32,000 bases of DNA, from positions 6,312 to 38,311 of the forward strand of contig CAZQEL010000002.1 of NCBI GenBank assembly GCA_964591795.1, written 5' to 3'. The position numbers were made by a program, and so were the translations under genes. The notes beneath the pieces were generated by a model that saw only the letters and a list, made by a program, of their open reading frames with translations, searched no databases and was not told the DNA's origin. Shown in pieces: positions 4,516 through 31,922 of this stretch. This DNA comes from an uncultured archaeon (GTDB lineage Archaea; Iainarchaeota; Iainarchaeia; Iainarchaeales; CSSED10-239). Every line of letters starts with the position of its first letter. Position 1 is the stretch's first letter.

Positions 4516-4872
4516 ATGTTTACAAAAAAACAAAAAGGTCAAGTTTCAGTTGAAATGTTAATTATTTTAGGTGTAATTATACTTGTTGCTGTTGTTTTTG
4601 TATCATATTATTTATCAGTAATAAATAAAAATATAGATAAAACAAGTAATGTTCCTACTGGAGTTCAAGTTAATAATTTAATAGAAAATAGTTTTAATAA
4701 TCCTAACCTTACTTCTGCACCTACAAGTTTAGCTACTTGTGGAAATGGAACTATTGATCCTATGGAAGTTTGTGATTATCTTATTTTCCCATTTGGATTA
4801 ACTTGCGATAATATAACTGGTGCAGGTACAACTTTAGTGTGTACTGATTGTCTTGAAATTACTTGTACTTAA
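4516..4872 (+). CDS. archaeal type IV pilin (class III signal peptide, Epd-like) with a C-terminal Cys-rich CGNG...C-D unit
   Basis: The N-terminus MFTKKQKG|QVSVEMLIILGVIILVAVVF matches the prepilin pattern (K-G, then Gln at +1, then a hydrophobic helix). The C-terminus is CGNGTIDPMEVCDY...LTCDNITGAGTTLVCTDCLEITCT. Its N-terminal 45 aa are paralogous to the 30756-31922 protein. Confidence 0.8.
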   Translation: MFTKKQKGQVSVEMLIILGVIILVAVVFVSYYLSVINKNIDKTSNVPTGVQVNNLIENSFNNPNLTSAPTSLATCGNGTIDPMEVCDYLIFPFGLTCDNITGAGTTLVCTDCLEITCT

Positions 4873-5302
4873 ATTTTAATTATTGCTTTTTATTAAAAAA
4901 AGAAAAATCGTTTTTACTAATATTAGTTTTAATCAAATAACTAGTTTATTAAAATTAGTAATTGTTAAAAAAAAGTAATTGTGAAGAATAAAATTATTTT
5001 TCTTCTTCAACTCTATTTTCTTTTATTCTCTTCATTGTTCTTGGAGAGAATGATTCTTTATACCATTTTTTCCAAATGATTAAAATATCATCATAATTAG
5101 TTTTACCGTGTTCTTGAAGATATTCTTCTTTTATAAGTAATAATTTATTATGTGCATAAACTGTGTTTTTAGCTTCCAAAAGTTCAATACAATCATTTTC
5201 GTTTGCAAAATCTACTTGGTATTTTTTTTCTTTTGCACGCATACTGATGTTATTCCACATCTCTTCAATTGTCATACCAGTAAGTTTTGATATTTTTGAA
5301 AA
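4752..5302. repeat. left copy of the ~550-bp direct repeat (pilin 3' end, spacer and ATPase 3' end)
   Basis: It aligns by eye with 7077-7626. Bases 4877-5245 look identical to 7201-7569. The differences cluster in the pilin-tail block and at 5246 and 5254. Confidence 0.9.
4994..5302 (-). pseudogene. orphan 3' fragment of the secretion ATPase gene (copy of the tail of 7318-9633)
   Basis: It translates to ...FSKISKLTGMTIEEMWNNISMRAKEKKYQVDF...ENRVEEEK. This is the last ~100 aa of the full ATPase with one substitution (MWNN versus MWDN). Homology stops abruptly at 5302. Confidence 0.85.
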
Positions 5303-5387
5303 TATAGGTGTAAATTCCTTTTTTATTAACTTATATTTATATTTTTCCTTTTCTTGACTAGTAATACCTCCAAAAAACTCCTTTTTC

Positions 5388-5405
5388 TGACTAGTATACT
5401 AGTCA
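5388..5405. promoter_or_regulatory. perfect 18-bp palindrome TGACTAGTATACTAGTCA upstream of the AAA ATPase gene, plus a half-site
   Basis: The sequence is self-complementary and lies 43 nt upstream of the ATG at 5448. An extra half-site TGACTAGTA sits at 5354-5362. It is a likely operator. Confidence 0.45.
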
Positions 5406-5447
5406 ACTTTTAGAAAGTATTATATACTATTCGGTTATAGTATTATT

Positions 5448-6785
5448 ATGCTTGACTGGAAAAACATAATTTTACAAAATCCTTGGTGGCAAGGTAAAGA
5501 AGATTATGATATTTCTAAACTTAAAAATAATAATTATTCTATTTCTAGAAAAAGTATACTTATAGCTCCTAATAAAATATATTTAATTAAAGGACCTAGA
5601 AGAGTTGGTAAAACTATTTTTTTAAAAAAAATAGCACAAGAGAATCCAAATATCTCTACTTATATAAATTTTGACACTCTTTTAAATGTTAGAATTTCTG
5701 AATTAATTAAAACTATCGAACATGATATTAAAATAAACAATAAAAAAATAATTTTACTAGATGAAATACAATCTTTAAAAGAAGGATGTTTATTTTTAAA
5801 ATCTTTAAAAGATCTAAACTTATTAAAAGATGTTTGTGTAATTGTTACTGGTTCTGATCCAAGAGCAATTGATCGTTGTAAACAATATTTAATAGGTAGA
5901 TCTGAAAAACTAAATATAATGGCTCCTTTAACTTTTAGACAATATATTTTAACTATTTTAAAAAAAGAAAATTTAATTTTGTTTAATATTATAAATAACA
6001 TTACAATTGATGCTAGTGAACCAAATTTAGATATATTTAAAAAATATAAATTAATAGAAAATTATTTTGAAGAAATTAATGATTATTTTTTTAATTATCT
6101 TTTAACAGGTGGGTTTCCTGAAGCTATTAATTCTTATTTTGAAAAAGGGTATGTAGATGAAAAGTATTATGAAGATATTGTTGAAAAAATATTTGAAAAA
6201 ATGGATAAATCTAAATCAATATCTATTTTAAAAGTTATTATTGATTCTTTATCAGGATCTATTAAATATTCTACCATTGAACAAAAAACAGGATATTCTA
6301 GAGATACAATTAAAAGTTATTTAAAAACTTTATCTGAGCTTCTAGTTGTTTTTGAAGTTAAAGAAAATAGTTCTTCAATTCTTAAAAAGTTTTATATAAA
6401 AGATCCTTTTATTATCCATTCAATTGCTAATTTATATAAAAATACAAATTATTTTGATCAAAGTAAACAACTTTTATTTAATGAACAAAAATTAGGTGTT
6501 TTTGCAGAAAATATTGTTGCTAGTCATTTACATAATCTTTACAATCTCGATCTTTCTTATTATAACGTAGATAAAAAAGAAATTGATTTTATTGTTTTAA
6601 AAAAAGCAATAGAAGTAAAATATAGGAACACATTAGTTAAACCAAATTATGTTGATTTTATAGATGAATACTTGATATTATCAAAATCAGTTTTGCCACC
6701 CGGAGATGTTATGATAGAAAATAGATTAGTTATACCTGTTTGTATTTTTTTAAGTCTTTTGGAAGTTCCAAAATATTTTTTGTGA
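5448..6785 (+). CDS. AAA+ ATPase (AAA_14) with a DUF4143 / PD-(D/E)xK-like C-terminal domain
   Basis: The N-terminus carries NPWWQGKEDYD. Walker A is GPRRVGKT and Walker B is ILLDEIQ. The C-terminus KEIDFIVLKKAIEVKY gives a D...E-x-K nuclease-like motif. This is the typical archaeal/bacterial ATP-binding protein of the DUF4143 family. Confidence 0.8.
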   Translation: MLDWKNIILQNPWWQGKEDYDISKLKNNNYSISRKSILIAPNKIYLIKGPRRVGKTIFLKKIAQENPNISTYINFDTLLNVRISELIKTIEHDIKINNKKIILLDEIQSLKEGCLFLKSLKDLNLLKDVCVIVTGSDPRAIDRCKQYLIGRSEKLNIMAPLTFRQYILTILKKENLILFNIINNITIDASEPNLDIFKKYKLIENYFEEINDYFFNYLLTGGFPEAINSYFEKGYVDEKYYEDIVEKIFEKMDKSKSISILKVIIDSLSGSIKYSTIEQKTGYSRDTIKSYLKTLSELLVVFEVKENSSSILKKFYIKDPFIIHSIANLYKNTNYFDQSKQLLFNEQKLGVFAENIVASHLHNLYNLDLSYYNVDKKEIDFIVLKKAIEVKYRNTLVKPNYVDFIDEYLILSKSVLPPGDVMIENRLVIPVCIFLSLLEVPKYFL

Positions 6786-7076
6786 TTTTAAATGGGTTTA
6801 AATTCAATTGTATTTAAAATATTTTTTTTATTTTTTTTATTAATAAACTGATTAGTTGAATTATTATAATACTTAATTTTAGGAGTAATTAGTATTTGTT
6901 CATAATAATGAATAAAAAATAGTGTATTTTGTTCACCCCTCTTGATCAATTTTAAAACTTTTTGTTTATATATATCTTTTATAGATTAAGATATATTGGT
7001 AAAACTGTTCTGTTATTACAATTATTTTTAATTTAATAGATTTTGATTTAATTTCAACTAATTATATAAATAAAGT

Positions 7077-7626
7077 TATTGATCCTATGGAAGTTTGTGA
7101 TGATACTAATTTTCCAATAGGTATTACTTGTACTTATGTTGTTAGTTCTGGTACAACTTTAGTGTGTACTGATTGTCTAGAAATTACTTGTAGTTAATTA
7201 TAATTATTGCTTTTTATTAAAAAAAGAAAAATCGTTTTTACTAATATTAGTTTTAATCAAATAACTAGTTTATTAAAATTAGTAATTGTTAAAAAAAAGT
7301 AATTGTGAAGAATAAAATTATTTTTCTTCTTCAACTCTATTTTCTTTTATTCTCTTCATTGTTCTTGGAGAGAATGATTCTTTATACCATTTTTTCCAAA
7401 TGATTAAAATATCATCATAATTAGTTTTACCGTGTTCTTGAAGATATTCTTCTTTTATAAGTAATAATTTATTATGTGCATAAACTGTGTTTTTAGCTTC
7501 CAAAAGTTCAATACAATCATTTTCGTTTGCAAAATCTACTTGGTATTTTTTTTCTTTTGCACGCATACTTATGTTATCCCACATCTCTTCAATTGTCATA
7601 CCAGTAAGTTTTGATATTTTTGAAAA
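7077..7626. repeat. right copy of the ~550-bp direct repeat
   Basis: See 4752-5302. This copy is continuous with the full-length ATPase gene. Confidence 0.9.
7081..7197 (+). pseudogene. promoter-less 3' fragment of a variant pilin gene
   Basis: It reads DPMEVCDDTNFPIGITCTYVVSSGTTLVCTDCLEITCS*. The full pilin reads DPMEVCDYLIFPFGLTCDNITGAGTTLVCTDCLEITCT*. The ends are conserved and the central 16 aa differ. The frame is open back to 7003, but there is no Met and no class III signal peptide. Confidence 0.8.
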
Positions 7627-9633
7627 GATTTCAGAATCTTTAAGTGCATCTTCATTTAAAACAAGTGTATCTTTAGCAGCATCGTATTCCATTAAATTAA
7701 GAATACCTCCTTCTGATTCTGGATCTGTATTCCAATGTTTACGTACTTCTGTTATTTGAACAATTCTTTTATGACTCTTAAGTGAGCCTTTAAATCTAAT
7801 TGGCTTAGCTACAACAATAATATCTGTTGCTTTAAATGAAGTGGTAGGTACTCCTAAATCATTAACTACACGATCCCACACAGCATAAGCTGAGTCAGCG
7901 TGTATGGTTCCCATAACTACATTCCCTGCAGCACCAATTCTCATAGCTTCATATAGTACTTTTGCTTCAACTGACCTTACTTCTCCTACAATTAATGCAG
8001 AATCACCTAATCTAAGAGCTGTTCTAAGTGCATCTTCAGGTTTCATTTCAGTTGTTGCTGTTTCTCCAGTTCCACCAATGGCTGATCTTGTTTTAAGTCT
8101 TTGAGCATTAAAACCAATATCTTTCATATACATTATTGGTAGTTCTAAAGTGTCTTCTTGAACAATTATTCTTGCATTTTGTAAAATTTCAAGCATTAAA
8201 GCAGTCATTAATGATGTTTTTCCTGCACCACGTGATCCTGCTACTAAAAGAGTTGAATTGTTATCAATAAAAAAACTTAATAAACCAGCTGCTAATGGGT
8301 TTAATGAGTTTACATTTATTAGTTGTGGAAGTGTCCACGGTGTATCCTTATGTAATCTAAATGCAAATGCAATACCGTCTGTTGCTAAAGGATGACCAAT
8401 AATTGCAATTCTTGTGTTTAAATCAGGCATATCAAAATCAAGAACAGGATGTGCATCATCAAATGGTCTTCCTGACATTGCTCTTATTTTTCCAACAAAA
8501 CTTTCAGCGTCTTTTTCTGGATAGTGTATGTTTGTTTGACACTGTCCATATTTTGAATGAACTACGTATATTGGTTTTGCTCCTAGTGGAGAATCTAAAT
8601 ATACATCAGTTAATTGTCTATCTGATAATAATAATTCTAAGATACCATAACCAATAGTGTATCTTGTAACTATTTCTGATAGTGAATAAACATCATCAGG
8701 TGATAATTCAATACTATATTTTTTAGCAATATCAATTATTGTTGATTGATATATTCTTTGGAAATATTTTCTAGTACTCTCTCCTGTTGTAAGAGTTACT
8801 TTTCCTGGTTTGTAATTAGCAACAGTATCTTTTGTTTTTGTTAATACAAAATAATGATCTGGAGACAATGTATATTCAGGTGGATTAATTAAATAAATAT
8901 ATTCTACTTTTTCTGGATGTCTAAATATTTGTACTGATGTGTTAAGTACTTGGTATTCATCAATTAACTCTAAAGTATCCATGTCTTTAAAAGTTAATTT
9001 TGATCCAATAAATGCTGGTTTTATTTCTACATCAAATATTGTTCTATAGATGTCTGTAACTTCAGAAAAATCAGTTATTTTTAATAAAATTGGTTTTATT
9101 TTTTTTAAAAATGTAGTTTTTTCATACATTTCTTTAAGTCTTAAAAGATGTTTTGTATTTTGTGTAAAACAGATTTCACAAGGTTGACCGTTTCTCTCTT
9201 GTGCTCGGTTTTTTGTATTTTCTATTTCTTTTAAAAGGCTAATGTATGAAGCTATTGGATCATAGGACAATAATTCTTTTGCAAATTTAATAATGTTATT
9301 ATGTCTTTCTGGATAACATTCATCACAGTCAATTTCTTTAACACCTAAGTGTTGAGATACCCATACTGCTCTATTTTCAAACTCTAAAAGTAAATTCACC
9401 ATTTCTTTTAAATATTTTGTTTGTTCTTCATTATAATTTCTTTCATAAACTTCAGCTAATATAATTTCATCAGCATCAACAGTTTCTAGTATTTTCATTG
9501 CATGATATCTACATCTAGGATCTTCAGCAATGGATGTATTATAAGGGCAATTTCTACAATCAAAAACTAGTTTTTTTTTAGAGCCTTCTGTTGTAACAAC
9601 ATAATCTCCAACTGTGAATTTTCCTATTTTCAT
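7318..9633 (-). CDS. type II/IV secretion (FlaI/VirB11/PilB superfamily) ATPase, extended 771-aa form
   Basis: Walker A is VAGSRGAGKTSL and the Walker B region is RIIVQEDTLEL. It also carries ALIVGEVRSVEA...GNVVMGTIHADSA. The N-terminal ~170 aa hold Cys pairs (CRNCPYN...CRYH, CDECYPERH, CEICF). A ~100-aa C-terminal extension is also present. Confidence 0.85.
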   Translation of the reverse strand: MKIGKFTVGDYVVTTEGSKKKLVFDCRNCPYNTSIAEDPRCRYHAMKILETVDADEIILAEVYERNYNEEQTKYLKEMVNLLLEFENRAVWVSQHLGVKEIDCDECYPERHNNIIKFAKELLSYDPIASYISLLKEIENTKNRAQERNGQPCEICFTQNTKHLLRLKEMYEKTTFLKKIKPILLKITDFSEVTDIYRTIFDVEIKPAFIGSKLTFKDMDTLELIDEYQVLNTSVQIFRHPEKVEYIYLINPPEYTLSPDHYFVLTKTKDTVANYKPGKVTLTTGESTRKYFQRIYQSTIIDIAKKYSIELSPDDVYSLSEIVTRYTIGYGILELLLSDRQLTDVYLDSPLGAKPIYVVHSKYGQCQTNIHYPEKDAESFVGKIRAMSGRPFDDAHPVLDFDMPDLNTRIAIIGHPLATDGIAFAFRLHKDTPWTLPQLINVNSLNPLAAGLLSFFIDNNSTLLVAGSRGAGKTSLMTALMLEILQNARIIVQEDTLELPIMYMKDIGFNAQRLKTRSAIGGTGETATTEMKPEDALRTALRLGDSALIVGEVRSVEAKVLYEAMRIGAAGNVVMGTIHADSAYAVWDRVVNDLGVPTTSFKATDIIVVAKPIRFKGSLKSHKRIVQITEVRKHWNTDPESEGGILNLMEYDAAKDTLVLNEDALKDSEIFSKISKLTGMTIEEMWDNISMRAKEKKYQVDFANENDCIELLEAKNTVYAHNKLLLIKEEYLQEHGKTNYDDILIIWKKWYKESFSPRTMKRIKENRVEEEK

Positions 9634-9783
9634 GATTTATCTTATTTTTATTTATTTCTAAAATATTATATACTAAAATAGTGGTCTATAGATTATTTAA
9701 ATCTTTTTATTTATTGTTTGTGAAATTCAATTTATTTTATTATGTGTTAATTTTAGATTGAAAAATATTCTTTTGAGCTAAAG

Positions 9784-9833
9784 TATAACTTACCCTGGAT
9801 ATTAAGAAATTGGTTTGTCCAGGGTAAGTTATA
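9784..9833. repeat. hairpin element, copy 1 (16-bp perfect arms TATAACTTACCCTGGA / TCCAGGGTAAGTTATA, 18-nt loop)
   Basis: The arms are 9784-9799 and 9818-9833. It is a GC-rich core in AT-rich DNA, just upstream of the Fic ATG at 9860. Confidence 0.8.
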
Positions 9834-9859
9834 TAAATCCTTTCACTCTATATATTTAT

Positions 9860-10843
9860 ATGGCATATATATATGTTAAGCAAATTGGTTCTAAAAAATA
9901 TTATTATTTAAGAGTTGATAAAAGGGTTAATGGTAAGAAAATCGTAAAAGATATTGCCTATCTTGGTTCTGATTTATCTAAAGTAGATGTAAAAAAACTA
10001 ATTAGTTCTTCTAAATATGGTAAGGAGATAACTAAAAGTTATAAACAAATAAATCATCTAATTACTTCTAACTATTATTATAGGAAAGCAGAGCTTTTAA
10101 AATATAAAAAAAACACTTATTTAACTAAAGAACAATTAATACGATTAAATGCTATTAGTTTTCATTTTTCTTCAAATTTTAAAAAATTGCATCAATTAAC
10201 TGCTGCTGATTTTTTAAATAATTTTGTAATTTCTTATACTTATAATACTACTTCAATTGAAGGAAATACAATTGCTCTGGCTGATGTTAAAAAAATATTA
10301 ACTGATGATTCAATTTATTTAAAAAATAAAACTTTAAGAGAGATTTATGATTTAAGAAATACAAAAGATACTTTTAATTATATTTTTAAAAACACTCTAA
10401 AATTAAGCCTTAAGGTTATTATTGATATTCATAAAAAATTAATGAAAGATGTTGATGATAGAGTGGGTTTTAGAAATTTTGATGTTAGAGTTTTTAAATC
10501 TCATTTTAAGTCTTCTCTTTATTTTAGGATTGATAAGGAAATTAACGATTTACTTTCTTGGTTTAATATATCTAAAGAAAATATTTTTGTAAGGGCAGTT
10601 ATTTTTCATCATAAATTTGAAAAGATACATCCTTTTGGAGATGGTAATGGACGGACAGGAAGAATGTTATTAAATTTAATTTTATTAAATAATAATTTAC
10701 CTCCTTTAATTATTACTAAGAAAAACAAAAAATTTTATTTTGATTCACTTTCAATTGCAGATAAAAAAGAAGATTATTCATTTTTAATTTCTTTTTTATT
10801 AGATGAGTATGAAAAAGGTTATTGGCAACATTTTATTTCTTAA
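9860..10843 (+). CDS. Fic/DOC family protein (class II, internal inhibitory helix)
   Basis: The Fic motif HPFGDGNGRTGR fits HxFx[DE]GNGRxxR. An upstream TTSIEGN fits the [ST]xxxE[GN] auto-inhibition motif. The start is moved to ATG 9860 (MAYIYVKQIGSKKYYYLR) because the TTG at 9815 lies inside the hairpin. Confidence 0.85.
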   Translation: MAYIYVKQIGSKKYYYLRVDKRVNGKKIVKDIAYLGSDLSKVDVKKLISSSKYGKEITKSYKQINHLITSNYYYRKAELLKYKKNTYLTKEQLIRLNAISFHFSSNFKKLHQLTAADFLNNFVISYTYNTTSIEGNTIALADVKKILTDDSIYLKNKTLREIYDLRNTKDTFNYIFKNTLKLSLKVIIDIHKKLMKDVDDRVGFRNFDVRVFKSHFKSSLYFRIDKEINDLLSWFNISKENIFVRAVIFHHKFEKIHPFGDGNGRTGRMLLNLILLNNNLPPLIITKKNKKFYFDSLSIADKKEDYSFLISFLLDEYEKGYWQHFIS

Positions 10844-10860
10844 TAAGGATTGTGTGTTTT

Positions 10861-10899
10861 TACCCTGGATAAACTTATTTTTTAAATGTCCAGAGTAAG
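10861..10899. repeat. hairpin element, copy 2 (TACCCTGGATA ... TGTCCAGAGTAAG)
   Basis: It has the same 11-nt left core, TACCCTGGATA, as copy 1. Its right arm TGTCCAGAGTAAG has one G-to-A change, and the loop is 19 nt. It starts 18 nt after the Fic stop. Confidence 0.7.
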
Positions 10900-10936
10900 A
10901 TTGTAATTTTTGTCCTTTTTTTAAATTAACATTTAA

Positions 10937-10966
10937 AGATATATTTTAGATATCTTTTAGATATCT
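10937..10966. promoter_or_regulatory. three 8-bp palindromic boxes (AGATATAT, AGATATCT, AGATATCT) phased at 11 bp; probable RHH operator
   Basis: The boxes start at 10937, 10948 and 10959. They lie 30-60 nt upstream of the antitoxin ATG at 10996. Confidence 0.5.
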
Positions 10967-10995
10967 TTGAATATGTGTTGTTTTATAATTATATT

Positions 10996-11247
10996 ATGGA
11001 TGAATTTATAGTTAGATTAAAAGGTAAGCCAAAAGAATACCTTGATATTCTACTTAAGGAAGGATATTTTAATACCAAAAGTGAAATTGTAAGACATGGT
11101 ATTTTAGCTCTTGCTAATAAATACAATGTAGAACAAGATTATGTTGTAGATAAAGATGAACTAATAAAAGTAGGTAAGGCTGTAAAAAGAGAATTAAGAG
11201 ATATTCAAAAAAAAAAAGTAAATTATATACTGAAGATGAATTTTTAG
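10996..11247 (+). CDS. ribbon-helix-helix (CopG/ParD-like) antitoxin
   Basis: MDEFIVRLKGKPKEYLDILLKEGYFNTKSEIVRHGILALANKY has the beta-strand, helix, helix pattern of RHH proteins. It lies directly upstream of a RelE-like ORF. The C-terminal frame is uncertain because of an A11 tract at 11207-11217. Confidence 0.6.
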   Translation: MDEFIVRLKGKPKEYLDILLKEGYFNTKSEIVRHGILALANKYNVEQDYVVDKDELIKVGKAVKRELRDIQKKKVNYILKMNF

Positions 11248-11288
11248 AATTATTTCCACATTTAAAAAAAGTAAAATAGTGGTATTTA

Positions 11289-11510
11289 TTGTATGATTAT
11301 AAGTTAACTGAATCATTTAAAAAAGATTTTGAAAAATTAGATGTTTCTTTTCAAATTATTATTTTTAAAAAAATAAAATATATTCTTTCGAATGATATTT
11401 CAAGAAAGCATTTAAAATATGGTTATCCTTATTTTGTATTAAAACTTAACATTTCTTCTAGACTTGTTTGTATGATTAAAAATGGTGTTCTTCTTTATAA
11501 TTTATTTTAA
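11289..11510 (+). CDS. relE: RelE/ParE-superfamily toxin-like protein
   Basis: This is a 73-aa protein. YKLTESFKKDFEKLDVSFQIIIFKKIKYIL...RLVCMIKNGVLLYNLF follows the RelE layout (Y-x-L...F-x-K-D-x-x-K-L...R-L-V/I-Y...). It pairs with an upstream RHH gene. It has a TTG start and a short C-terminus. Confidence 0.5.
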   Translation: MYDYKLTESFKKDFEKLDVSFQIIIFKKIKYILSNDISRKHLKYGYPYFVLKLNISSRLVCMIKNGVLLYNLF

Positions 11511-11543
11511 GAAAACTTATTGTTTTAAGTTTGTTAAAATTAA

Positions 11544-12674
11544 TTATTTTATTTTTTTAATAACTTCTTCGAAAAATAATTTAATTAAATAACCTAAACA
11601 AGGAGATGAGATGTAATTTGTGACTTCTGATATTTTTATCCATTTAAAATTAATGTGTGCTGGGATTTTTAGTTCTTCAGAATCTGTGGTAACATAGTAA
11701 TATTCAGTATATATTTTTTTAAATGTGTTTTCTGATTTTTCGTACCAGTGGTGGCAACCGCCCATTTTTTTTTCAATTATTTTTAAATTAGTAAGACCAG
11801 TTTCTAATTCAATTTCTTTTTTAATAACTTTAAGTGATTTTTTTATTTGTTTTTCTGATGGTTTTCCTTTTGGAAAACTCCAAAAACCACAACTGGTTTT
11901 ATTGTCTTCAAGTAAGAGTATTTTTTTAATTTTAGGATTGTATATTATTTTTCCTTTTGCATAATTAAATTTTATTTTTAATAATTTATTTTTTATATAT
12001 ATGTCTTCAAGATTTGTTTTATTTAGAGTTAATTCAAATTTTAAAATTTGATTTAAAATTATATCTTTATTAATTTTATTGTAATTTTTAATTTTTGAAA
12101 GCATTTTTTGTGTATCTTTAATATCTACTTTTAATTGATTTAAAAGTCTTGCATATTTATCTAAATTGTAATACATTTTATATTTGTTATTTTGAAAATA
12201 ATTTTCTAAAAACTCAATTCTTATTTTTGAAAAAACACTTGTAGTTTCAAATGAGAATTCAAAATAGGTTTTTGATTTAAGTAGGTTTAAAAGATCATCT
12301 TCAATTCTGTACCCATATATAAAAAAGCTATTAAGTATGAAATCATAAAGATAAGGGTAAAATAGATCTGTGGATATATTTTTTAAATTATTTTTATCTT
12401 GTGCATTTATTTTAAATTCAATTTCTATTTGGTATTTCTTACTTACATCTTCTTTAATTTTAGCTAAAGCATTAATATCTGTTTTTTTAAGTTCTTTATT
12501 TTTTGTAAAAACCATAACATTAAGGTCACTTTCTTTAGGAGTTACTTCTCCTCTTGCAAAAGAACCGTGAATATATACTGATTTTATAAATGGAAATTTT
12601 TTCTTATTAAAAATTGTTTTTAAATAGTTTGTTAATGTATAATATTCTTCTAGATTTTTATTTATAATATCCAT
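11544..12674 (-). CDS. nucleotidyltransferase (MNT/KNTase-like), helical region and Nudix-like domain fusion protein
   Basis: The N-terminus YIHGSFARGEVTPKESDLNVMVF is an NTase G-S...D-x-[DN] motif in which the second Asp is Asn. The C-terminus GFWSFPKGKPSEKQIKKSLKVIKKEIELETGL resembles a Nudix box (W-x-F-P-K-G...[RK]-E-U-x-x-E-x-G-U) with non-canonical positions. Confidence 0.6.
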   Translation of the reverse strand: MDIINKNLEEYYTLTNYLKTIFNKKKFPFIKSVYIHGSFARGEVTPKESDLNVMVFTKNKELKKTDINALAKIKEDVSKKYQIEIEFKINAQDKNNLKNISTDLFYPYLYDFILNSFFIYGYRIEDDLLNLLKSKTYFEFSFETTSVFSKIRIEFLENYFQNNKYKMYYNLDKYARLLNQLKVDIKDTQKMLSKIKNYNKINKDIILNQILKFELTLNKTNLEDIYIKNKLLKIKFNYAKGKIIYNPKIKKILLLEDNKTSCGFWSFPKGKPSEKQIKKSLKVIKKEIELETGLTNLKIIEKKMGGCHHWYEKSENTFKKIYTEYYYVTTDSEELKIPAHINFKWIKISEVTNYISSPCLGYLIKLFFEEVIKKIK

Positions 12675-12877
12675 ATCTTCTCAATATTTAGATTGTTATT
12701 TATATATTTTCTAGTATGTTTTTTAAAGGTATTTATTTTAGTGGTTTTTATTAAAACAAATTTTTTGTGTACACATAAAAAGATGATCTGTTTATAAATA
12801 TTATGTACTTTCATATTTTGAATACAAAAAAGAAACTTCTTTTTAAAAAAGAGATAATCATACAAGGATGGTACACA

Positions 12878-13210
12878 ATGAACAAAAAATATTTAATTGC
12901 AGGTATACTGTTAGTAATAGCTGCATCTTTTCTCTTAGCTGTTCAAATGAATTTTTCAGCTAATAAAAACAATAGTGATTTTATTGCAAAAAAAGATAAT
13001 ACAGTAAACATGTATGTTTTTTCAAAAACAACTTCTTTTGATCAATCACTTTATTTTGCAAATCAAAACCAAATTAAAAAGTGTAAATCTAGTCCACGTT
13101 GTATTGGTAACACTTGTGGGATTTGTAATACAGCATCATATGGTGCATTTTCTGCAAAACTTGCAAAAGATATTAACTGGGTAACAAAAGGTGTTATTAC
13201 GTCTGTTTAA
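12878..13210 (+). CDS. small membrane-anchored or secreted Cys-containing hypothetical protein
   Basis: MNKKYLIAGILLVIAASFLLAV is an N-terminal hydrophobic anchor or signal. The C-terminal part carries CKSSPRCIGNTCGIC. A hairpin and T tract follow the gene. The start is taken at ATG 12878 rather than 12803. Confidence 0.5.
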   Translation: MNKKYLIAGILLVIAASFLLAVQMNFSANKNNSDFIAKKDNTVNMYVFSKTTSFDQSLYFANQNQIKKCKSSPRCIGNTCGICNTASYGAFSAKLAKDINWVTKGVITSV

Positions 13211-13349: not shown

Positions 13350-14678
13350 ATGGATATAAATAACTCAAAAGAAATATTTGGAAAAGTAATGAAAGAAACA
13401 GGTAAATCTGAATCAGAACTACTTGATCTTCTTGAAAAAATAAAAGAAAAATACCAAGGTCTATTGTCTGAGGTTGGAGCAAACATAATGCTCGCTAAGC
13501 AATTTGGTATTAATTTAGAAGCAAGTCATCCTACTTCTGCTATTGTAAAAATAAATGATTTAGAAAACATAACTGATGCTTCACTTTATGCAAGAGTTAA
13601 ATTTATACCAGCTCCTAGAGGTTATACTCAAAAAGATGGAACCAAAGGAAGAATACAAGCAATATATGTTTTTGATGAAACAGGTGAAATAAAAGTAAAT
13701 CTTTGGAATGATCAAGCAGATTTAGTACATTCACTTAAACTTGATAAAAATTCAAAAATTTTAATAAAAGACACATATATTACAACTTATAATGATAAAA
13801 AAGAACTTTCTTTAAGACAGGGTGGAATGATTACAAAAGATCCCGTTGATTTTCCAGTAATTGTACCAAAGGAAGAAAATTTAGTTGATGTATCTAACAT
13901 AAATCAAACTGAAAGTTTAATTGATGTTATTGGAAGAATAACAGTTATTTATAATAAAAATTCATTTAAAGATAAAGACGATAAAGATCGTTTTGTTTTA
14001 AACTTTGAAGTATCAGATGGAATTAAATCTTTAAAGTTTGTAGCATGGGATCCTTGGCCAGATTATATTTTAGAAAACTTTGGAAAAGGTGATTTAATTA
14101 AAATGTCTGATTTAAGAGTTAAAGAAGGCCTTTATGATTTAGATATTAATCTAAATTGGTTTTCAACAGTTATTAAAGACCCAGTTACTACTAAAAAAAT
14201 ACCATCCTTAACTGAAATTTTAGCACTAACTAAATCTTTAGAAGAAGGAAAGATTGAATCTTTAGAAGATGGACGTAATTATTCTTTAGATGGTTTAATT
14301 GTTTCAATTAATAGAAATAATTTAAGATATTTTAAATGTAAAGATTGTAATGAAAAAGTACAAATAATTAATGGCGACTTCATTTGTGAAAAATGTAGTA
14401 AAATTGTTGATGTTTCAGTTAATTTATTTGGAAGTGTAGATATTGATGATGGTACAGGAATTTTAAAGGTTGTTTTCTTTTCTGAGCTTGCTGAAAATGT
14501 ATATAAGTTAAAGAAAGAAAATTTAAAGAAAGAACTAACCGAAGAAGACAAATTAACAATATTTGATAAACTTGAAAATGAACTTCTAGGTAAAAAAGTT
14601 AAAATTTCAGGAAGAGCAAAACTCAATAGTTTTTCTTCAAGAATTGAATTTTTAGCTGATAGCTTTGAAGTTTTATAA
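13350..14678 (+). CDS. rpa: replication protein A (archaeal RPA/RFA, multiple OB folds and a zinc ribbon)
   Basis: The N-terminus SELLDLLEKIKEKYQGLLSEVGANIMLAKQFGINL resembles the N-terminal helical domain of methanococcal RPA. Repeated OB-like blocks are present (ARVKFIP..., IDVIGRITVIY..., LDGLIVSINR...). The C4 zinc ribbon is CKDCNEKV...CEKCSK. Confidence 0.8.
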   Translation: MDINNSKEIFGKVMKETGKSESELLDLLEKIKEKYQGLLSEVGANIMLAKQFGINLEASHPTSAIVKINDLENITDASLYARVKFIPAPRGYTQKDGTKGRIQAIYVFDETGEIKVNLWNDQADLVHSLKLDKNSKILIKDTYITTYNDKKELSLRQGGMITKDPVDFPVIVPKEENLVDVSNINQTESLIDVIGRITVIYNKNSFKDKDDKDRFVLNFEVSDGIKSLKFVAWDPWPDYILENFGKGDLIKMSDLRVKEGLYDLDINLNWFSTVIKDPVTTKKIPSLTEILALTKSLEEGKIESLEDGRNYSLDGLIVSINRNNLRYFKCKDCNEKVQIINGDFICEKCSKIVDVSVNLFGSVDIDDGTGILKVVFFSELAENVYKLKKENLKKELTEEDKLTIFDKLENELLGKKVKISGRAKLNSFSSRIEFLADSFEVL

Positions 14679-30755: not shown

Positions 30756-31922
30756 TTGGAAAAAAGATATAAAGCTCAAGTTTCTGTAGAAATGTTAGTA
30801 ATGGTTGGAATTGTTGTTTTAGGCGGTATTCTGTTTGCAACTTTTTATTTATCTTCTGTTAATAAAAATATAGATAAAACAACTAACCTTGATGTGGATT
30901 TCACTAATTTAATTGGTGATGAAAACATGGGATCATTTCCAAGTTTAGATTCAAATAATGGTAACACACCTGGTGATGGTTTTTGTGGTGATGGTATTGT
31001 TGATTCTTTTTTATTAGAACAATGTGAACTACCTGGTTCAACTGCTTTTTGTAATAGTTTATCTCCATCTTTTACTGGTGGAAATGCTACATGTACTGGA
31101 TCATGTATTTGGGATTTATCTTCTTGTATTGGTTCTTCAACTTGTGGTGATGGTATTTTTAATGCTTTCACAGAAGTTTGTGATTATGATAATTCTGCTG
31201 GTAGTTATCTTTATAATTCAAGTTATGATTGTTCAACAAATCCTGATTATCTTTCAGGTGTTGTAGGTCCTTATATTAATGGTGGAGCAATAACTTGTAG
31301 TTCTTGTAATGTTGATTACACTGGTTGTGATTATAATCCTGGTAATTTACAAGATTATATTTTAATGTTAGAACCAACAATTGCATCTGCAAATATTGAT
31401 ATATCTCGTTCTACAAATTTAAGTATTGATTTTAATGGATCTACTTGGGTTGATGTAAATGTTTCTGTATTAGTAGATGGTCCTATGGGTCCAGTTAATT
31501 CAGATAAATGTGAATATGATAATGTTATAATTCCTGCAAATCCACAAGGTAGTTTTGTACATAGATTTTTAAGTACAACCTCAACTGAAGAATTTATTAA
31601 AGATGTAAGTTGTTCTGAAAATGGAGTTTATACTTTTAGTTTTAAAGGAATTGATAATAATGGTAATACTGATCAAAAAGACTTAATTTTTACTGTTCCT
31701 CAAGAAGCACCTCCTTTATTTGCATTATGTAAGAATCAAACAAACACAGAAGGAACTATTAGTAATTGGTGTATTAATTATTTATCTGATACACAAACAA
31801 ATGCAGAAGGAACAGTTACTTTCTTTATTAATCAACCTGATAATTTAGAATATAGTAGTTTAGATCCTATTTGTCAAATTACTAATGATGGAAGTATTTG
31901 TTTTTCATTAGGTTTTACATAA
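30756..31922 (+). CDS. large type IV pilin-like adhesin (class III signal peptide, Cys-rich CGDG repeats and a C-terminal beta-rich domain)
   Basis: MEKRYKA|QVSVEMLVMVGIVVLGGILFATFYLSSVNKNIDKTTN is paralogous to the 4516 pilin N-terminus. It is followed by CGDGIVDSFLLEQCELPG and CGDGIFNAFTEVCDYDN units and many Cys. It has a TTG start with GAGG 8 nt upstream. An internal duplicate QTNTEGTIS / QTNAEGTVT is present. Confidence 0.75.
   Translation: MEKRYKAQVSVEMLVMVGIVVLGGILFATFYLSSVNKNIDKTTNLDVDFTNLIGDENMGSFPSLDSNNGNTPGDGFCGDGIVDSFLLEQCELPGSTAFCNSLSPSFTGGNATCTGSCIWDLSSCIGSSTCGDGIFNAFTEVCDYDNSAGSYLYNSSYDCSTNPDYLSGVVGPYINGGAITCSSCNVDYTGCDYNPGNLQDYILMLEPTIASANIDISRSTNLSIDFNGSTWVDVNVSVLVDGPMGPVNSDKCEYDNVIIPANPQGSFVHRFLSTTSTEEFIKDVSCSENGVYTFSFKGIDNNGNTDQKDLIFTVPQEAPPLFALCKNQTNTEGTISNWCINYLSDTQTNAEGTVTFFINQPDNLEYSSLDPICQITNDGSICFSLGFT

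Follow-up and report, generated by a model that had tools for sequence, protein, structure and literature searches.

How did a candidate defence gene come to lie between two direct copies of the same 550-nt sequence, one of them attached to a pilin gene and the other to the gene of a pilus ATPase? The locus was found in a 32,000-nt stretch of genomic DNA (hereafter the window) from Candidatus Iainarchaeum, in the Diapherotrites (DPANN). The uncultivated DPANN archaea have tiny genomes, and their attachment to hosts is thought to depend on pili or other surface structures; recombination in their genomes is known almost wholly by inference.

Geometry of the repeat

The repeat and the genes that it overlaps are the following.

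4516..4872, + strand: complete archaeal type IV pilin gene, 118 aa, class III signal peptide (PF04021, E=1.6e-6)
4752..5302, no strand: left repeat copy, with pilin 3' end, spacer and ATPase tail (self-alignment)
4890..4975, + strand: spacer, a decayed remnant (~70% identity) of the 3' end of a 195-aa gene; same remnant in the right copy (7214-7299)
4994..5305, - strand: truncated pilus ATPase C-terminus, residues 669-771
7075..7197, + strand: promoterless pilin tail, 40 codons, in frame
7077..7626, no strand: right repeat copy, with pilin tail, spacer and 3' end of the intact ATPase gene (self-alignment)
7318..9633, - strand: complete type II/IV secretion-family (FlaI/PilB-like) pilus ATPase, 771 aa, T2SSE (PF00437)

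The original prediction had described 4752-5302 and 7077-7626 as the same sequence, with an identical middle of ~370 bp and differences confined to the outer ends, and the alignment agrees on each point. The two segments (551 and 550 nt) are direct copies with 25 differences, and their identical core measures 369 nt (4877-5245 = 7201-7569). About 19 of these differences fall within the pilin block (4777-4824); the pilin-side end also has single substitutions at 4854, 4868 and 4876 and a 1-nt indel at 4871, and the other end, past the core, has two substitutions (5246/7570 and 5254/7578). At the composition of the window, the longest repeat expected by chance is ~17 nt, and the 32 kb contain no further long repeat except two paralogous cold-shock genes.

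The gene content is also the one that had been announced: the pilin is intact only where it runs into the left copy, which holds just a tail of the ATPase, and the T2SSE ATPase is intact only where it runs into the right copy, which holds just a tail of the pilin. The order is full pilin, repeat, ATPase tail, bracketed segment, pilin tail, repeat, full ATPase. The pilin has a Cys-rich C-terminal module, and its final 40 codons are part of the left copy. A pilin with a class III signal peptide (PF04021) and a T2SSE-family ATPase (PF00437) are the expected components of an archaeal type IV pilus (TFF); homologues of the ATPase are annotated in the source databases as FlaI or type II/IV secretion ATPase. 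Among the genes recognised beside the ATPase in the window there is neither a polytopic platform protein (PilC/FlaJ-like) nor a prepilin peptidase.

The bracketed segment

5303..7076, no strand: unique segment between the repeat copies, 1,774 nt, without terminal inverted repeats
5388..5426, + strand: predicted upstream control region of the AAA_14 gene (palindrome, conserved block and TTATATA)
5448..6785, + strand: AAA_14 + DUF4143 ATPase-nuclease gene, 445 aa (Pfam, PADLOC PDC-S01), hereafter the cargo
6788..6949, - strand: stub of an AbiEii toxin gene, of which the C-terminal ~35 residues are recognisable (compared with AbiEi/AbiEii genes in relatives)

The cargo protein combines in one polypeptide an N-terminal AAA_14 domain (PF13173, E=6e-21) and a C-terminal, PD-(D/E)XK-like DUF4143 domain (PF13635, E=7e-16). 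It has the domain architecture of PADLOC PDC-S01 and matches the corresponding HMMs (best E=3.5e-26), which makes it a candidate defence gene of the PDC-S01 type. As in defence islands of that type, its neighbours in the window include the AbiE stub, a Fic/SoFic-like gene, an RHH gene and a nucleotidyltransferase-NUDIX fusion. The function of the PDC-S01 family is so far without experimental validation (PMC12988326). The operator-like palindrome that had been attributed to the gene is indeed present, as an 18-nt perfect palindrome (5388-5405) just upstream of the promoter block; the block CTTTTAGAAAG in the same region is kept across five lineages, and TTATATA (5420-5426) stands ~22-28 nt ahead of the ATG.

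Neither an integrase nor a transposase had been noticed at first, and the Pfam scan of the long ORFs of the window found none: there is no integrase or recombinase domain among them, and the only Pfam match of the segment is AAA_14/DUF4143. Insertion of a transposon or IS is not supported, since the scanned ORFs include no transposase, the segment has no terminal inverted repeats, and the duplication (550 nt here versus ~1.14 kb in a sister strain) is not short or of fixed size. An integrase-mediated genomic island is rejected because no recombinase domain was detected in the scanned ORFs and the window contains no tRNA gene; no Rfam family was found in it either. A viral or plasmid origin of the cargo is discarded for lack of any viral or plasmid hit. 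As a side observation, the very AT-rich DNA at 6895-7028 has weak blastn similarity, in hits that are not colinear, to the 5' region of an AAA_14 paralogue (AAA14b) of two relatives, L022 and L023.

The cargo in related genomes

The ATPase-nuclease gene had been taken for an insertion, but in the closest Iainarchaeum relatives the interval from pilin to ATPase already contains its orthologue. The amino acid identity of the cargo protein is 80% in L025, 83% in L022, 80% in L023 and 58% in L006, and that of the ATPase in the same relatives is 88%, 90%, 87% and 80%, respectively: the divergence of the cargo parallels that of the ATPase across the four. The gene order is pilin, AAA14, AbiEi (reversed), p197 and ATPase (reversed) in L025, and pilin, p65, AAA14b, AAA14, p207, AAA14c and ATPase (reversed) in L022; those of L023 and L006 are similar. 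None of the four has a second match to the ATPase tail or to the pilin tail at the locus, and no repeat flanks the cargo orthologue in L022, L023 or L025. DNA homology to the relatives begins at ~5322, 20 nt inside the junction.

Because the orthologues occupy the same locus without repeats, and because their divergence tracks that of the ATPase, the cargo gene is an old resident of the island rather than an inserted newcomer. What is new in the lineage of the window is the second copy of a block made of the pilin tail, the 195-aa gene or its remnant, and the ATPase tail. A comparison with relatives had been proposed as a way to look for an empty site, where the pilin converges directly on the ATPase, but all close relatives hold cargo there: AbiE (intact or as fragmented AbiEi/AbiEii), PIN-RHH and extra AAA_14 paralogues. 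Between the S-layer/pilin genes and the convergent ATPase of the pilus there is thus a variable hot spot, in which defence and toxin-antitoxin genes are swapped.

In L006, the AAA_14 gene is surrounded by a 53-nt perfect repeat, which could have meant that AAA_14/DUF4143 cassettes are mobile units that always come with target duplications; the absence of flanking repeats in L022, L023 and L025 eliminates this idea as a general rule. The L006 repeat includes the last 10 nt of the gene itself and is therefore not a target-site duplication; it looks like the remnant of a tandem duplication.

Age of the duplication

A sister strain, whose backbone differs from that of the window by ~0.17% (9 mismatches, roughly over 7626-12800), has both junctions of the window with a different allele of the repeat. 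In this strain both repeat contexts have the 195-aa gene intact, L021 showing it behind the full pilin and L026 behind the pilin tail, and the repeat would be ~1.14 kb long. In the window and in the ENA assembly ERZ27316756, on the other hand, both copies have the same 85-nt remnant, ~70% identical to the 3' end of the 195-aa gene. The alleles of strains that share the junctions thus differ by a 590-nt gene; the event is therefore not recent, and the duplication predates the split of the sampled strains. A reading of the footprint as that of a recent integration has to be abandoned.

In such a reading, a circle from a related strain, carrying the AAA_14/DUF4143 gene and a 550-bp homologous fragment, entered an empty pilin-ATPase junction by a single crossover. 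The topology is exactly the expected one, with two direct hybrid copies of the homology, each truncated at the end that faces the insert; there is no sign of site-specific recombination machinery or of terminal inverted repeats; the pilin tail that adjoins the insert is a different, Cys-conserving allele, as would be expected for DNA of another strain; and one metagenome contains a cycle-like contig. The geometry is the one that a Campbell-type event would leave. However, the bracketed DNA is not extraneous, since orthologues are present at the same locus in L022, L023, L025 and L006 with a divergence parallel to that of the ATPase, and it has no viral or plasmid relatives. With respect to the sister strain, cargo and backbone are alike (~0.12% versus ~0.17% difference); these values also lead us to reject a recent horizontal spread, of which a cargo more conserved than its flanks would be the sign. 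No empty-site contig was found, in close relatives or elsewhere, and the junctions are common to strains whose repeat alleles differ by a whole gene. A recent integration is unlikely on these grounds.

Gene conversion between the copies

Several positions show that the two copies change together. Site 5170 is T in both copies of the window and C in both the cargo-joined and the ATPase-joined copies of the JGI assemblies; sites 5125/5134 are C,T in both copies of the window, against G,C in the cargo-joined L026 and the ATPase-joined L019. At the edge, on the contrary, the pair 5246/5254 is G,T beside the cargo and T,C beside the ATPase, in the window and JGI alike. The ATPase copy of ERZ27316756 instead has G,T at this pair (7570/7578), which looks like a conversion tract that extended to the edge.

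The copies therefore co-vary within genomes and diverge at their edges, as in concerted evolution. The haplotypes, however, were drawn from metagenomes of different samples with mixed populations, and strain mixtures could account for some of the "concerted" sites; L027, for example, shows a second haplotype of the left copy. An identical middle with divergent edges need not point to a recent integration and its site of crossover, and is better explained by gene conversion between the copies. Divergence between strains is patchy, and concentrated in the repeat, the pilin and orf135. Homologous recombination plainly acts on the repeats, and the locus gives direct sequence-level evidence that this process and gene conversion are both at work over short times, in strains ~0.2% apart.

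The junctions in other assemblies

The possibility of assembly chimerism had been raised in the original prediction. Both junctions (5302/5303 and 7076/7077) are reproduced base for base in four other assemblies from three sources, which shows that they are not chimeric:

L001: ENA ERZ27316756
L002: Logan SRR8862237, 100% identical over 5273-7230
L018 (= L026, same contig): JGI 3300039186
L027: JGI 3300039187

The Logan contig stops exactly 30 nt into each identical stretch, which is what a true repeat is expected to produce in an assembly with k=31.

It is important to note that assemblies of such genomes allow several paths through exact repeats of 0.4-1.1 kb. The 369-nt exact repeat may have been mis-threaded, the real state being an "empty" chromosome, with the pilin converging on the full ATPase, plus a 2.3-2.9 kb circle, or else a tandem array of cargo plus repeat. 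Short-read contigs do break inside the repeat (L003 at 4992, L001 at 5224, L002 at 5273 and 7230, L019 at 7368 and L020 at 7560), and only the contig of the window bridges the left copy all the way from full pilin to cargo; L003 ends at 4992 and L021 at the position that corresponds to 5128. In addition, L018/L026 runs from the end of the cargo through the pilin tail, the 195-aa gene and the ATPase tail back to the cargo, and its ends overlap by 42 nt with 4 mismatches; it may represent a circle, a tandem array or an artefact of the assembly graph. In L027, a second variant of the cargo end also runs into the pilin tail, which may reflect two units in series or two strains.

Against mis-threading, L001 joins in a single contig the ATPase tail, the cargo, the pilin tail, the repeat and the full ATPase, and continues into Fic and onward over a further 5.5 kb of chromosome, a path that does not exist in the empty-plus-circle state. 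In L018 the overlap is inexact, whereas the ends of a true circular contig would share an exact k-mer. Last, the cargo gene of the relatives is chromosomal at exactly the same place, in contigs of 56 kb and 193 kb, and any circle would therefore be an excision product of the integrated form. We consider mis-threading rather improbable.

Origin of the arrangement

The locus is probably an old direct duplication in the chromosome of this Candidatus Iainarchaeum, whose copies exchange sequence by gene conversion and whose cargo is ancestral. A single duplicative rearrangement would have made both junctions. It may have been the Campbell-like entry, or re-entry, of a circle with the block on it; alternatively, a template switch during replication may have doubled the block and left the cargo at the joint. 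Both routes lead to the same product, and the microhomology at the junctions, which is minimal (≤ 2-3 nt) and uninformative, does not confirm a template switch. Since the duplication, gene conversion has kept the interior identical within a genome and different between genomes; what has stayed copy-specific is the pilin block, which evolves fast, and the final 57 nt beside the ATPase-side junction. The strongly divergent pilin block of the right copy requires an extra assumption: it could be an allele of another strain, or the expressed pilin could have been replaced later.

Campbell-type integrants arise from suicide-vector integration or from the re-integration of excised circles. Like the window, such integrants and merodiploid duplications have direct homologous copies, hybrid and truncated at one end, which bracket unique DNA without a dedicated recombinase, and repeat-mediated loss is expected in both cases; unlike them, the window has a bracketed gene that is ancestral in relatives, and a structure that persists across strain divergence with concerted evolution. 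Duplicated tuf or rRNA genes in bacteria are examples of duplicates that evolve in concert by gene conversion. Concerted segmental duplications also have an interior that is identical within a genome and different between genomes, with divergence at the edges, but contrary to concerted functional paralogues, the repeat of the window consists of two gene fragments. Template switching (FoSTeS/MMBIR) can likewise yield, in one event, a duplication with other DNA at the joint. Taken as a whole, this is fairly ordinary genome plasticity, with no new type of mobile element or mechanism.

Homologous recombination between the repeats could excise or amplify the 2,324-nt unit. One may go further and see in the repeats a working device that excises, re-integrates or tandemly amplifies the defence gene, as a switch of copy number or presence, and that could also feed the divergent pilin tail into the expressed pilin and so change the surface of the pilus. 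The cycle-like contig, in which two cargo ends that differ slightly stand in series (L018/L026, L027), and the independent 53-nt repeat of L006 would be the traces of such a device, whose existence we regard as quite doubtful.

Two once-complete neighbouring modules (pilin, 195-aa gene, ATPase) might also have resulted from a larger duplication or the acquisition of a second module and then decayed reciprocally, the junctions being independent deletion scars. The right junction does adjoin a truncated AbiEii gene, tandem paralogues and fragments are common in the island of relatives (three AAA_14 in L022, AAA14b and AbiEii fragments in L023 and L004), and the L006 repeat resembles a tandem-duplication remnant. 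Yet this scenario needs at least three events instead of one, and no relative has two copies of the pilin or of the ATPase at the locus, which makes it very unlikely in comparison with the single old duplication.

The pilin tail

The least probable proposal, which we hardly retain, treats the promoterless tail as a silent cassette, whose variable block would pass by gene conversion into the expressed pilin for antigenic variation, with the identical 3' flank as anchor. Its structure is reminiscent of Neisseria pilE/pilS, with a promoterless 3' pilin fragment, a variable block and a shared 3' flank close to an expressed pilin, and with active gene conversion between the two repeat copies. The tail (7075-7197) has a conserved 25-nt 5' anchor (IDPMEVCD), a variable block, a conserved 3' end and the identical 3' flank; it differs from the full pilin by 13 nonsynonymous and 4 synonymous codons, with the Cys pattern retained, and the pilin evolves ~10 times faster than the backbone between the sister strains. 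However, there is a single cassette and no evidence of transfer: the variable block is copy-specific in every assembly, and the full-length pilins sampled (window, L003 and L021, a very small sample) all keep the left-type block. The few differences between strains in the pilin are not conversion tracts from the silent tail either, since a single mutation in one lineage explains each of them. The archaeal pilin is unrelated in sequence to that of Neisseria, and the likeness is one of structure alone.

The pilin tail and the truncated tail of the ATPase are probably by-products of the duplication. The ATPase tail holds an intact 93-aa ORF (4994-5275), which starts from an internal ATG and has N at a site where the full ATPase gene has D; the pilin tail has no start codon upstream of an internal ATG. 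Regarding annotation, the called 93-aa and 36-aa "genes" are fragments and should be read as such.

Structure of the duplicated pilin–ATPase locus

The pilin–ATPase locus of this DPANN archaeon contains a segmental duplication that is specific to the lineage, lies in a hot spot for defence genes and is maintained by gene conversion. Structures of this kind are already known; the main value of this fresh example is to provide direct evidence of active homologous recombination in these organisms, and it is also a caution for annotation and assembly. The window has a G+C content of about 24%, and its genes include those for archaeal MCM and RPA-like proteins, for an S-layer protein and for pilins bearing class III signal peptides. 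The nearest homologues of its pilus ATPase come from metagenome-assembled genomes of Candidatus Iainarchaeum/Diapherotrites, a DPANN lineage.

Aligning the left copy (4752–5302, 551 nt) with the right copy (7077–7626, 550 nt) gives 25 differences, and the copies share an identical stretch of 369 nt, the longest repeat expected by chance being about 17 nt. The repeat is thus confirmed, and the description given in the original prediction was accurate in essentially every detail.

Features of the duplicated locus (window positions)
4516–4872: complete pilin gene, 118 aa, continuous with the left copy
4777–4824 (left-copy coordinates): pilin block holding about 19 of the differences
4854, 4868 and 4876: three substitutions which, with a 1-nt indel at 4871, lie around the pilin stop codon
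4877–5245 = 7201–7569: identical stretch, 369 nt
5246/7570 and 5254/7578: two substitutions beyond the identical stretch
End of the left copy: convergent ATPase fragment, residues 669–771
5303–7076: segment between the copies (the cargo), 1,774 nt
5448–6785: AAA_14 + DUF4143 gene, matching the PADLOC candidate defence family PDC-S01; a perfect 18-nt palindrome lies upstream of its promoter
6788–6949, minus strand: AbiEii toxin gene stub
Start of the right copy: promoterless pilin tail, 40 codons
7318–9633, minus strand: complete T2SSE-family ATPase, 771 aa, into which the right copy runs

The sole other long repeat of the window (258 nt, 78% identity) is formed by two paralogous 63-aa cold-shock-domain genes (PF00313; 26233–26424 and 26819–27010) with similar upstream regions, placed in a 2-kb gene-poor stretch upstream of MCM.

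Support for the junctions

The repeat junctions (5302/5303 and 7076/7077) are genuine: both recur in four further assemblies from three sources. The contig L001 (ENA ERZ27316756) matches window 5224–13140 with 4 mismatches; in a single sequence it runs from the ATPase tail through the cargo, the pilin tail and the right copy into the full ATPase, and on for 5.5 kb along the chromosome downstream. L002 (Logan SRR8862237) is identical to window 5273–7230 and ends 30 nt into each identical stretch, as expected of a k=31 assembly at a true repeat. The JGI contigs L018 (the same as L026; 3300039186) and L027 (3300039187) reproduce both junctions base for base. That the full pilin is linked to the cargo by way of the left copy is backed by the window's own contig only, the other contigs breaking inside the repeat (L003 at 4992, L021 at the equivalent of 5128).

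Ancestry of the AAA_14 gene

In all relatives examined, the gene order S-layer, pilin, variable stretch, convergent ATPase, RPA is kept, and the stretch between pilin and ATPase forms a defence and toxin–antitoxin island. The nearest homologues of the cargo gene are themselves part of it, encoded on the pilin strand, and their divergence tracks that of the ATPase.

Pilin–ATPase loci of relatives (identity to the window's proteins)
L022: AAA_14 83%; ATPase 90%
L025: AAA_14 80%; ATPase 88%
L023: AAA_14 80%; ATPase 87%
L006: AAA_14 58%; ATPase 80%; island with AbiEi/AbiEii, a 191-aa gene and the AAA_14 homologue
L004: ATPase 91%; island with AbiEi, a fragmented AbiEii and an RHH gene
L005: ATPase 89%; island with PIN–RHH and three small genes

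DNA homology of the cargo to the four relatives that carry AAA_14 starts at about 5322, 20 nt inside the left junction. None of these four loci has a second ATPase or pilin fragment, and no flanking repeats were found at L022, L023 and L025. The order in L025 (pilin, AAA_14, AbiEi in reverse orientation, a 197-aa gene, convergent ATPase) is that of the window minus the extra ATPase tail and the extra pilin tail. Searches of viral contigs and of plasmids gave no relative of the cargo gene. It is most parsimonious to take the AAA_14 gene as inherited together with the locus; the novelty of this lineage lies in the block's second copy rather than in the gene that it brackets. The idea of an inserted ATPase–nuclease gene is thus not supported, since orthologues occupy the same locus in relatives and have diverged in parallel with the ATPase.

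In L006 (JAQVTI010000001.1, Candidatus ainarchaeum sp.), a perfect 53-nt direct repeat (11251–11303 and 12760–12812) surrounds the AAA_14/DUF4143 homologue; it holds the last 8 codons of a convergent 208-aa gene, the hairpin ATGCTTTTTGAAAAAGCAT and the terminal 10 nt of the AAA_14 gene itself. Here a duplication has come to bracket this gene family a second time, independently.

All AAA_14 orthologues (window 5388–5426; L006, L022, L023 and L025) share an upstream block CTTTTAGAAAG followed by TTTATA(T/A)A. This block is directly preceded by a lineage-specific palindrome (TGACTAGTATACTAGTCA in the window, TCAACTAGTTAACTAGTTGA in L006), which suggests a putative co-evolving operator.

Age of the duplication and gene conversion

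The backbone of the sister strain, from JGI samples 3300039186 and 3300039187, is about 0.17% divergent from the window (9 mismatches across roughly 7626–12800), the divergence being packed into a few patches. The strain's cargo is about 99.9% identical to that of the window and both junctions are the same. In both contexts an intact 195-aa gene separates the stop codons of pilin and ATPase, after the full pilin in L021 and after the pilin tail in L018/L026, so that the repeat of this strain would be about 1.14 kb long. In the window and ERZ27316756, the same 85-nt remnant, only about 70% identical to the 3' end of the 195-aa gene, is present in both copies. The duplication is older than the split of the sampled strains. 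A recent integration from a related strain, as the original prediction implied, finds no support, the junctions being common to strains with different repeat alleles.

Single sites also co-vary. At site 5170 the two window copies have T and the two JGI copies C; at 5125 and 5134 the window has C,T in either copy, and G,C stands in a JGI cargo-side copy (L026) and in the JGI ATPase-side copy (L019). The pair 5246/5254 is copy-specific in the window and in JGI (G,T beside the cargo, T,C beside the ATPase); the ATPase-side copy of ERZ27316756 has G,T instead, so that the full ATPase has a D to N change (P0001 versus P0126). Together with the presence of the 195-aa gene or its remnant in both copies, these sites bear the signature of gene conversion between the copies, which evolve in concert: the interior is homogenised within each genome, and divergence survives at the edges. 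Gene conversion thus explains the identical middle and the divergent ends, and a recent crossover need not be invoked. As a caveat, the JGI data hold more than one haplotype (L027 versus L026), so some of the mosaic may have arisen among strains and not through exchange between the two copies.

The 195-aa gene belongs to a family of lysine-rich, fast-evolving proteins of 189–207 aa, conserved neighbours of the pilin and the ATPase that are 30–36% identical between relatives and gave no Pfam or PADLOC match.

Members of the lysine-rich family
L021, 420–1007
L005, 6233–6802
L006, 12814–13389
L025, 5071–5664
Window, 4890–4975 and 7214–7299: decayed 3' remnant in both repeat copies, all that is left there

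Another hypervariable or recombined patch, like the pilin–ATPase repeat, lies at 12803–13210 (orf135, a small gene for a putative secreted protein) and 14624–14636, with about 60 differences in 400 nt between strains otherwise about 0.17% apart.

Founding event and present-day dynamics

Both junctions could stem from one event, either the Campbell-like integration (or re-integration) of a circle bearing the block or, equally, a replication template switch in which the block was duplicated and the cargo came to lie at the joint. A larger duplication followed by two deletions is a third route. The junctions show microhomology of 2–3 nt at most, and no terminal inverted repeats. Of the Campbell-type reading, the footprint and the role of homologous recombination stand, but not the inserted gene or the recent integration from a related strain.

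The contig L018/L026 (JGI 3300039186, Ga0400660_0021023; 2,955 nt) makes a single round from cargo through pilin tail, 195-aa gene and ATPase tail back into cargo. Its termini are two slightly different versions of the cargo end, overlapping by 42 nt with 4 mismatches; the pilin tail also follows the second version in L027. The contig could represent two units in tandem, a mixture of two strains, or a graph cycle through the stretch, of up to about 345 nt, where the two copies may be identical. It could also be an excised circle, but a genuine circular contig would show an exact k-mer overlap, unlike this one. Among the contigs recovered, none had the empty site.

Function of the repeat and neighbouring genes

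If the copies recombined, only the cargo would be lost or amplified, and both pilin and ATPase would stay intact; therefore the repeat is not an on/off switch for the pilus. Two strains (P0123, P0128) keep the 93-aa ATPase-tail ORF intact, which says nothing about its function, since gene conversion alone would preserve the ORF.

Compared with the full pilin, the pilin tail has 13 nonsynonymous and 4 synonymous codon differences and keeps all cysteines; it was thus a distinct and functional allele at one time. It may stem from another strain, or a later replacement may have changed the expressed pilin. The anatomy also fits a silent cassette feeding the expressed pilin, as in pilE/pilS, but there is no positive evidence for this: contrary to pilE/pilS, no transfer is seen into any sampled full-length pilin, all of which keep the left-type block (that of the right copy is GATGATACTAATTTTCCAATAGGTATTACTTGTACTTATGTTGTTAGTTCT), and the differences between the pilins of the strains are simple single-lineage changes.

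The other side of the ATPase (9815–12674) is also a defence and toxin–antitoxin cluster, with a Fic protein (matching SoFic and PDC-S04), an RHH protein with a 73-aa partner, and a nucleotidyltransferase–NUDIX fusion (matching PDC-S09 and PDC-S07); relatives carry different genes there, such as RelA_SpoT in L022. The pilus ATPases of some relatives (homologues P0092 and P0117) are 1,260–1,290 aa long, with additional Pfam matches to PF14528 and PF14890. These are intein and homing-endonuclease domains, which would mean that an intein is inserted in the ATPase there.

Last, a second class III signal peptide protein (388 aa) is encoded at 30756–31922. Its N-terminus is 71% identical in DNA to that of the pilin, and its body includes several Cys-rich CGDG...C(D/E) modules which resemble the single C-terminal module of the pilin.
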